Shown: one piece after another, positions 29,871-32,800 of the stretch
How positions within the stretch are numbered: the first letter of the stretch is position 1
How the letters are laid out: each line of letters opens with the position of its first letter
Assembly (NCBI RefSeq): GCF_013167455.1
Contig: NZ_CP038328.1
DNA length: 64,000 bases
Direction: 5' to 3' (one strand)
Source: Escherichia coli O157:H7
Lineage (GTDB): Bacteria > Pseudomonadota > Gammaproteobacteria > Enterobacterales > Enterobacteriaceae
Program-made: the position numbers

Positions 29871-32800
29871 TAGTTTGTACACCGTCCGATACTCAATCGC
29901 CAAAAAGAAAAAAGCCAGCAGATAATCACTGCTGGCGTGGCGATTAACACCAATACTCAGTCACACATGATGTCCGCAAATCAGTAGTCAGAATGACTCC
30001 CCTCCCACTGCATCAGTTCTTCAAGCATGGTTAATCGTTGTGGGACGCTTAACCAACGCAACCAGCACAACTTCGCTGTCGCGGTAAAATAGTGCTGATA
30101 AAACTGACGAATGGGGCACCTCCTTGCTTCATCGTTAGGAATTATTGACTTAATATAGGGAAAATAAAATTGCTGTCTTTTGCGCAGGAGTTCCCCTTTT
30201 ATGCCATCTGCTCGTCTGCAACAACAGTTCATCCGCCTGTGGCAATGCTGCGAGGGTAAATCGCAGGACACAACGCTCAACGAACTGGCAGCGTTATTGA
30301 GCTGCTCGCGTCGTCATATGCGTACCCTGCTCAACACCATGCAGGATCGCGGCTGGCTGACGTGGGAAGCGGAAGTCGGGCGTGGTAAACGCTCGCGTCT
30401 GACATTCCTCTATACCGGGCTGGCGCTTCAGCAACAGCGGGCGGAAGACCTGCTGGAGCAGGACCGTATCGACCAACTAGTGCAGTTAGTTGGCGACAAA
30501 GCGACTGTGAGGCAAATGCTGGTTTCTCATCTGGGCCGCAGCTTCCGCCAGGGGCGGCACATCCTGCGCGTGCTCTACTATCGTCCGTTGCGTAATCTGC
30601 TACCTGGCAGCGCATTGCGCCGTTCCGAAACCCATATCGCCCGGCAAATCTTCAGTTCGCTAACGCGCATAAATGAGGAAAATGGGGAACTGGAAGCAGA
30701 CATCGCCCACCACTGGCAGCAAATATCACCGCTTCACTGGCGTTTCTTTTTGCGTCCAGGAGTCCATTTTCATCATGGTCGTGAACTGGAAATGGACGAC
30801 GTGATCGCCTCTTTAAAACGAATCAATACGCTGCCGCTCTATTCGCATATTGCTGACATTGTGTCGCCGACGCCCTGGACGCTGGATATCCACCTCACGC
30901 AGCCGGATCGCTGGTTGCCGTTACTGCTGGGACAAGTTCCGGCGATGATCCTGCCGCGCGAATGGGAAACCCTCAGTAACTTTGCCAGCCATCCCATCGG
31001 CACCGGTCCGTATGCGGTGATTCGCAACAGCACCAATCAACTGAAAATTCAGGCATTCGATGACTTCTTCGGTTACCGGGCATTAATCGATGAAGTTAAC
31101 GTCTGGGTTCTGCCGGAAATTGCCGACGAGCCAGCCGGAGGGCTGATGCTAAAAGGTCCACAGGGCGAGGAAAAAGAGATTGAAAGCCGCCTGGAGGAAG
31201 GTTGCTACTATTTACTGTTCGATAGCCGCACCCATCGCGGGGCGAATCAGCAAGTCAGGGACTGGGTAAGCTATGTGCTTTCTCCAACTAATCTGGTCTA
31301 TTTCGCTGAGGAACAGTACCAGCAACTGTGGTTCCCGGCTTATGGACTGCTCCCCCGTTGGCATCATGCCCGCACCATAACGAGCGAAAAACCGGCTGGT
31401 CTGGAAAGCCTCACCCTGACCTTTTATCAGGATCACAGTGAGCATCGGGTGATTGCCGGGATCATGCAGCAGATTCTGGCAAGCCACCAGGTCACACTGG
31501 AAATCAAAGAGATCAGCTACGATCAGTGGCATGAAGGAGAGATCGAGAGCGATATCTGGCTTAACAGCGCCAACTTTACGCTGCCGCTGGATTTTTCGCT
31601 GTTCGCGCACCTGTGCGAGGTACCGCTGCTCCAACACTGTATTCCAATCGACTGGCAAGTCGACGCCGCCCGCTGGCGCAATGGCGAAATGAACCTGGCG
31701 AACTGGTGCCAACAACTGGTCGCCAGCAAAGCAATGGTGCCACTTATCCACCACTGGCTGATCATTCAGGGACAACGCAGTATGCGCGGCCTGCGCATGA
31801 ACACCCTCGGCTGGTTTGATTTTAAATCAGCGTGGTTTGCGCCGCCGGATCCAGAGTAGCTTGCGCCTTTTGGCGGTCATGAGCGCATTTTTTATATTCA
31901 GACGGAATGATAAAATACATTACTTTTATATTTTCTCTGTTTTATGCATCGTCTGATTAGCGTCGCAAATAAGATTAAAGAAGGGGCATTCCAGCCCCTC
32001 TTTCATATTCTGAGTTAATCAATAACGGCGCAGTCTAGCCTTGTTCTGGCCGGAAAGGTCAGCTTTTTCAGGTTAACCTCGCGCAGGTCAGTCATACCAA
32101 CGGCTATTGTTCGTTTCAGCATTGCTCAGGTCAACCTCGAGACAGTCAATACCACAAATGACAACCCCGTTAAAGTAAGCATTACTCAGATCAATCCCCC
32201 CGGTCCTGGTGCTCTTTTTCAGCTGCAACTCCAGAGTAAATATCGCCTCATCGCCAATAAAAAAACTGACGCATAACGTACCTTCTGGCGAGAGTGAGGC
32301 CTTCGCGGCCATATTTTCCGGATCTTTTGCGTATTCTTTGAGTTCATTAAATTTTATCAGCCAGTGAGTTAACTTATCACGCGCCTTCCCGTCGACAGCC
32401 CCGGTAAAGTATTTTGAGTAGTCATCACTATTCTGGAAATAAAATGCATCCTTCAGAATTTGCCTTGCCGCAGTCTGGGAATGTTTATCTGACTGGAAGA
32501 GATTGCGTAACGTCTCCCATAGCTCTTCAAAGATATTCATATTCTCGGTCTTTTTGACCAAGTTAGCCATCCTGATAATCTGAGAATTAGTAAGGCCTGG
32601 ATCTTTAGTGGTATTACTAGCAGGGATACTAATCTGTTCTGGGTTTCTTACTTTCATGCTGATAGCTCCACTCTGAATAAAAAACTCAGAATAAGCGTCC
32701 TGAATAAGAATACTGTCAAAAATCGCTCATTCACGCAATAAACGGTTACGTTACCTATTTTGACTGTAGCGAAGGGATTCTTTCGGATCAACGCTCTCCA

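Follow-up and report, generated by a model that had tools for sequence, protein, structure and literature searches.

The region between leuD and sgrR in the window (the whole 64,000-nucleotide stretch of the Escherichia coli O157:H7 chromosome that was analysed) represents, with a probability that we put at roughly 0.8, the sgrR-sgrS(sgrT) locus as carried by the clonal E. coli lineage O55:H7/O157:H7, in which a G-to-T change in the sgrT start codon has crippled SgrT while the SgrS riboregulator has been kept. SgrT is the protein arm of SgrS and blocks the glucose transporter PtsG post-translationally. The start-codon change is a known, lineage-specific point mutation that was first published in 2009. 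To this our analysis adds allele counts over 5,426 genomes, the presence of the mutation in O55:H7, and the observation that the Shine-Dalgarno sequence AGGAGG is the ancestral state and that of the species majority. The features of the locus are given in Table 1.

Table 1. Features of the sgrR-sgrS(sgrT) locus and their positions in the window
Feature	Position	Strand	Basis or remark
SgrS small RNA, dual-function (riboregulator and sgrT mRNA), 227 nt	29907..30133	-	Rfam RF00534
Intrinsic terminator: 8-bp stem, 7-nt loop, then U-run (TTTTTT)	29907..29936	-	Sequence and Rfam structure
SgrS base-pairing (seed) region GTGTGACTGAGTATTGGTGT	29947..29966	-	Identical to K-12
sgrT reading frame, 43 codons and TGA	29981..30112	-	Pfam PF15894, PGAP
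sgrT initiation codon position, ATT	30110..30112	-	Sequence reading and alignment
sgrT Shine-Dalgarno AGGAGGT, 5 nt (GCCCC) upstream of ATT	30118..30124	-	Without the K-12 GGGGGTGCCCC hairpin
sgrR, divergent activator of sgrS, intact	30201..31859	+	PGAP annotation of identical O157 record; Pfam

SgrS appears intact as a riboregulator

Rfam model RF00534 scores 228.1 bits on 30133..29907, where the gathering score is 37, and the match takes in the whole model (positions 1-232 of 232). Read from 30133, the minus strand is GATGAAGCAAGGAGGTGCCCCATTCGTCAGTTT, and SgrS of the window is 100% identical to that of O157:H7 genomes. The gene is divergent from sgrR and lies between sgrR and the leu operon, the position expected of SgrS, with leuD at 29268-29873. 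The sgrR product is full length (Pfam SgrR_N, 149 bits, plus SBP_bac_5), and the sgrR-sgrS intergenic region differs from that of K-12 by one base. The -35/-10 pair returned by a consensus promoter scan was discarded, as it is too distant from the known SgrS 5' end. The gene order in an identical annotated record is leuABCD, sgrT (opposite strand), sgrR, espY2, a TPP riboswitch and thiBPQ. The espY2 gene, which encodes a T3SS effector, occupies approximately 32088-32657 (minus strand) between sgrR and the TPP riboswitch/thiB, and in strain PV15-279 it is interrupted by an IS1203 element; espY1 is found with an IS4/Tn5 transposase remnant at approximately 48900-49900, between rluA and djlA.

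The initial annotation had described the region for base pairing and the terminator as preserved and the riboregulator as intact, and both descriptions agree with the full-length Rfam match, the individual elements and the predicted fold and accessibility. The seed (alignment columns 235-254) is invariant across six aligned alleles, and its identity to the experimentally characterised K-12 seed suggests that the conserved 3' pairing with ptsG and manXYZ mRNAs is retained. The terminator stem, CCAGCAG/CTGCTGG, is the same as in K-12, with the difference confined to the loop, and it is followed by a U-tail, so that the Rho-independent terminator that forms the Hfq binding module of SgrS is present. 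SgrS keeps its SgrR-dependent control region, its ptsG/manXYZ seed and its terminator, and with these RNA elements intact we expect riboregulation under glucose-phosphate stress to be unaffected by ATT.

According to the Rfam consensus structure, the mutated base, at the third position of the start codon, is paired with a downstream C in GAUGCAG, and the mutation therefore costs one G-C pair. The predicted minimum free energy of the full RNA rises accordingly, from -84.1 kcal/mol with ATG to -81.9 kcal/mol with ATT. These two observations would suit an alternative in which selection for the G-to-T change acted on the RNA and not on the protein, with loss of a G-C pair from the long start-region helix altering SgrS stability or its handling by Hfq or RNase E. 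We consider such selection highly improbable. The overall fold is predicted to be unchanged, as are the mean unpaired probability of the seed (0.703 with either codon) and the accessibility of the Shine-Dalgarno (0.32 with either codon), and a difference of about 2 kcal/mol is minor within a structure of -82 kcal/mol. Selection is moreover not evidenced, and in a clonal lineage drift or hitch-hiking would be enough to fix the change.

Likeness to K-12 extends over the promoter region (one SNP), the first 35 residues of SgrT apart from the start, the seed and the terminator stem. Divergence from K-12 is concentrated in the 3' third of SgrS (approximately 29907-30005), from about sgrT codon 36 through the terminator loop, and it results in a different SgrT C-terminus, WEGSHSDY here versus WDDRNSES in K-12. 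By full-length identity, 2,158 genomes have SgrS of the window type and 3,241 have the K-12 type. The setA gene, which is downstream of sgrS in K-12, is missing from the window, where leuD comes directly after sgrS with a spacer at 29874-29906; presence or absence of setA is judged from a few retrieved loci only.

The sgrT frame is open behind an ATT codon

Reading of the minus strand and alignment both confirm the central claim of the initial annotation, that ATT stands where sgrT is expected to begin with ATG. The sequence around the start is GATGAAGCAAGGAGGTGCCCC-ATT-CGTCAGTTT, and the K-12 counterpart given in the initial annotation, AAGGGGGTGCCCC-ATG, is correct. SgrT has ATT rather than a canonical initiation codon (ATG, GTG or TTG) at its start. 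The frame behind ATT, RQFYQHYFTATAKLCWLRWLSVPQRLTMLEELMQWEGSHSDY, is open for 42 codons as far as the TGA at 29983..29981, in line with the stop that had been placed near 29981. With M substituted for the first residue, the translation matches Pfam PF15894 with 50 bits (cut-off 27, E = 2.4e-13); an NCBIfam HMM scan of SgrT gave no match, although PGAP calls the CDS SgrT. In O157:H7 and O55:H7 records (e.g., L001 3022-3153), the PGAP annotation shows sgrT as an intact CDS that begins at ATT, with the accession WP_001248768.1, and ATG strains are assigned the same accession. Because ATT and ATG strains share one protein accession, the start-codon difference is hidden at the protein level.

Other canonical starts for SgrT were considered and rejected. 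Between the 5' end of the SgrS transcript and ATT, no ATG, GTG or TTG is in frame, and the downstream in-frame codons TTG15, TTG18, ATG29 and ATG34 have no convincing Shine-Dalgarno and would cost at least the N-terminal third of the protein. Out of frame with sgrT, a 27-codon ORF, MKQGGAPFVSFISTILPRQRSCAGCVG, runs from an AUG at SgrS +2 (30049-30132, minus strand). K-12 and the Rfam consensus share this AUG, and its conservation would be explained by the Rfam structure, in which the 5' GAUG pairs with a downstream CAUC. The ORF could contribute to ribosome footprints on SgrS.

The ATT allele is confined to one clonal lineage among the serotyped records listed

Alleles were counted with 31-nt megablast queries for which an exact 28-mer was required, so that each count represents one allele, in a collection of 5,426 complete E. 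coli genomes, 5,399 of which contain SgrS. The ATT allele is present in 311 of the 5,426 genomes, and two offset queries gave the same number. ATG is present in at least 4,968 genomes by the upstream query (3,542 with AGGAGG and 1,426 with the AGGGGG of K-12) and in 4,822 by the downstream query. Another 120 of the 5,399 genomes (311 + 3,542 + 1,426 = 5,279) carry a different variant within the 31-mer of the upstream query, which comprises the 5' end, the Shine-Dalgarno and the start codon, and in EBJ001 (NZ_CP086336.1) only 58% of SgrS was matched; independent lesions in sgrT or sgrS could be hidden among the 120 variant genomes or in EBJ001.

These counts also dispose of an error of sequencing or assembly in one record as the explanation of ATT. 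The same base is found in 311 independently assembled complete genomes, 308 of which match the window at all 227 nt of SgrS, and in 2009 it was already described for Sakai and EDL933 (PMC2760817). We reject a sequencing error because the base is common to all of these genomes. Decay of the reading frame was considered as a test of lost function, and here the identity of the 308 genomes argues neither way, since the clone is too young.

The serotyped ATT genomes among the 65 records listed are all O157:H7, O55:H7 or O157. Between positions 20000 and 44000 (24 kb), the window matches many O157:H7 chromosomes with 100% identity, and over this segment exactly 311 of the 5,426 genomes are at least 99% identical. 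The ATT count thus equals that of the class with at least 99% identity, which, as a comparison of totals and not of genome lists, fits complete fixation in one clone. Direct inspection of the O55:H7 strain DEC5B located sgrT at the same position and with the same protein, WP_001248768.1 (PGAP). Since this O55:H7 strain has the ATT allele, the change is older than the O55-to-O157 serotype switch, and ATT would have become fixed before O157:H7 and O55:H7 split.

An alignment of sgrS across lineages had been proposed in the initial annotation, and in the six alleles that we aligned, ETEC6335, LF82 and O145:H28 have ATG where the window has ATT. For ETEC6335 this is the sole difference from the window within SgrS, and LF82 (B2) and O145:H28 each have one further SNP. 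The event is therefore a single G-to-T substitution, and AGGAGG was already present on the allele in which it arose. It lies at the third position of the sgrT start codon, and the parent allele, with AGGAGG, ATG and no inhibitory hairpin, persists in other strains.

The strong Shine-Dalgarno is ancestral and not compensatory

The Shine-Dalgarno AGGAGG had been described as stronger than that of K-12. This is borne out by the duplex with the 16S 3' end, which has -15.1 kcal/mol here versus -14.2 kcal/mol in K-12, but the greater strength is not special to ATT: AGGAGG with ATG is the majority state of the species, and the K-12 combination of AGGGGG with ATG is the minority state. K-12 (Wadler & Vanderpool 2007, 2009) differs from the window in having ATG but an AGGGGG that forms a hairpin, GGGGGTGCCCC, which represses sgrT translation, as was shown genetically (PMC2760806). 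When 39-mers were folded, this hairpin formed in the K-12 sequence only, and it was noted already in 2009 that it occurs in only 3 of 15 strains (PMC2760817). AGGAGG as compensation for ATT is ruled out, as the nearest ATG allele already has it, and because it is the majority state, found with ATG in 3,542 genomes, it is uninformative on compensation. It is K-12, the model strain, that is the atypical one at the sgrT ribosome-binding site. The counts remove one argument for initiation at ATT.

SgrT synthesis from ATT is most likely strongly reduced

AUU pairs poorly with the initiator tRNA. Measured in reporters, initiation at AUU was 1-2% of the AUG level with one vector and 0.1-3% with a second, and the only confirmed AUU starts in E. 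coli are those of infC and pcnB (bioRxiv 10.1101/063800). With such low initiation (0.1-3% of AUG), SgrT output has probably fallen by one to three orders of magnitude from that of the AGGAGG/ATG ancestor, which was well translated; for the protein arm of SgrS this would effectively be a strong knock-down or loss. The most likely outcome is that SgrT synthesis is reduced to a few percent or less while the riboregulator works; we infer both the size of this reduction and its physiological effect, and no direct measurement of SgrT from the O157:H7 allele was found in the literature searched. The strong, unstructured AGGAGG at good spacing could lift AUU use above the reporter average.

The suggestion in the initial annotation that SgrT may be untranslated or may start at a non-canonical codon matches two published positions. 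Horler & Vanderpool (2009, NAR 37:5465; PMC2760817) described the mutation in O157:H7 Sakai and other O157:H7 strains and concluded that no functional SgrT is encoded, and this conclusion is repeated in a 2014 review (PMC4021124) and in a 2026 EHEC paper (PMC13293527). Neuhaus et al. (2017; PMC5331693), working on EDL933, noted the ATG-to-ATT and AAGGGGGT-to-AAGGAGGT changes and hypothesised that ATT is used for initiation, on the grounds of a ribosome coverage value (RCV) of 1.55 for the whole sRNA in Ribo-seq, a Ka/Ks of 0.15 and the Shine-Dalgarno as compensation.

If ATT does work as a start, AGGAGG without the hairpin would drive useful SgrT synthesis, possibly tuned by IF3 as for infC. 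ATT is a rare but real start codon in E. coli, the Shine-Dalgarno is optimal with its 5-nt spacer, and the PGAP annotation likewise begins the CDS at ATT. The evidence of Neuhaus et al. is nonetheless weak, because in their data 52 of 115 annotated non-coding RNAs, with classic Hfq sRNAs such as RyhB and OmrA/B among them, are above the "translated" RCV threshold, which therefore has low specificity, because the Ka/Ks records the history before the mutation, and because the argument from the Shine-Dalgarno fails. The reporter values also stand against useful initiation, and SgrT was undetectable by western blot even from the K-12 ATG allele (PMC2760806). We therefore regard useful synthesis from ATT as unlikely. 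That the mutation represents a retuning and not a loss, with AUU behind the unstructured AGGAGG keeping SgrT synthesis in O55:H7/O157:H7 low but responsive to IF3 or to stress, as is the case for infC, seems less likely still. In infC and pcnB, as here, AUU occupies the initiation position behind a Shine-Dalgarno, but the AUU of infC is conserved and serves IF3 autoregulation, whereas the AUU of sgrT is recent and limited to one lineage, and a regulatory use is not evidenced. A strong reduction of SgrT with the riboregulator retained is the reading that we carry forward.

Relation to known SgrS systems and significance

SgrS of the window is the same allele as that of Sakai and EDL933 (PMC2760817), with no sequence difference. 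Apart from the sgrT start, the Sakai/EDL933 SgrS was described as 99% identical to the CFT073 type, and the start-codon change as present in all O157:H7 strains examined. SgrS of Yersinia and Photorhabdus, which has no sgrT, is likewise limited to riboregulation, and in these genera the protein arm is dispensable (PMC2760817, PMC4021124). There the sgrT frame is deleted or truncated, whereas in O157:H7 a single base of the start codon is changed and the rest of the frame is intact.

Beyond the published work, the significance of these results is small. The ATT allele provides a clean lineage marker for O55:H7/O157:H7. Should the mutation prove to be a retuning, the balance between riboregulation and post-translational inhibition of PtsG would have been reset in the niche of the pathogen. 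On the reading that we favour, the allele would represent a naturally occurring separation of function in a dual-function sRNA, in which the riboregulator is kept and the protein arm is crippled.
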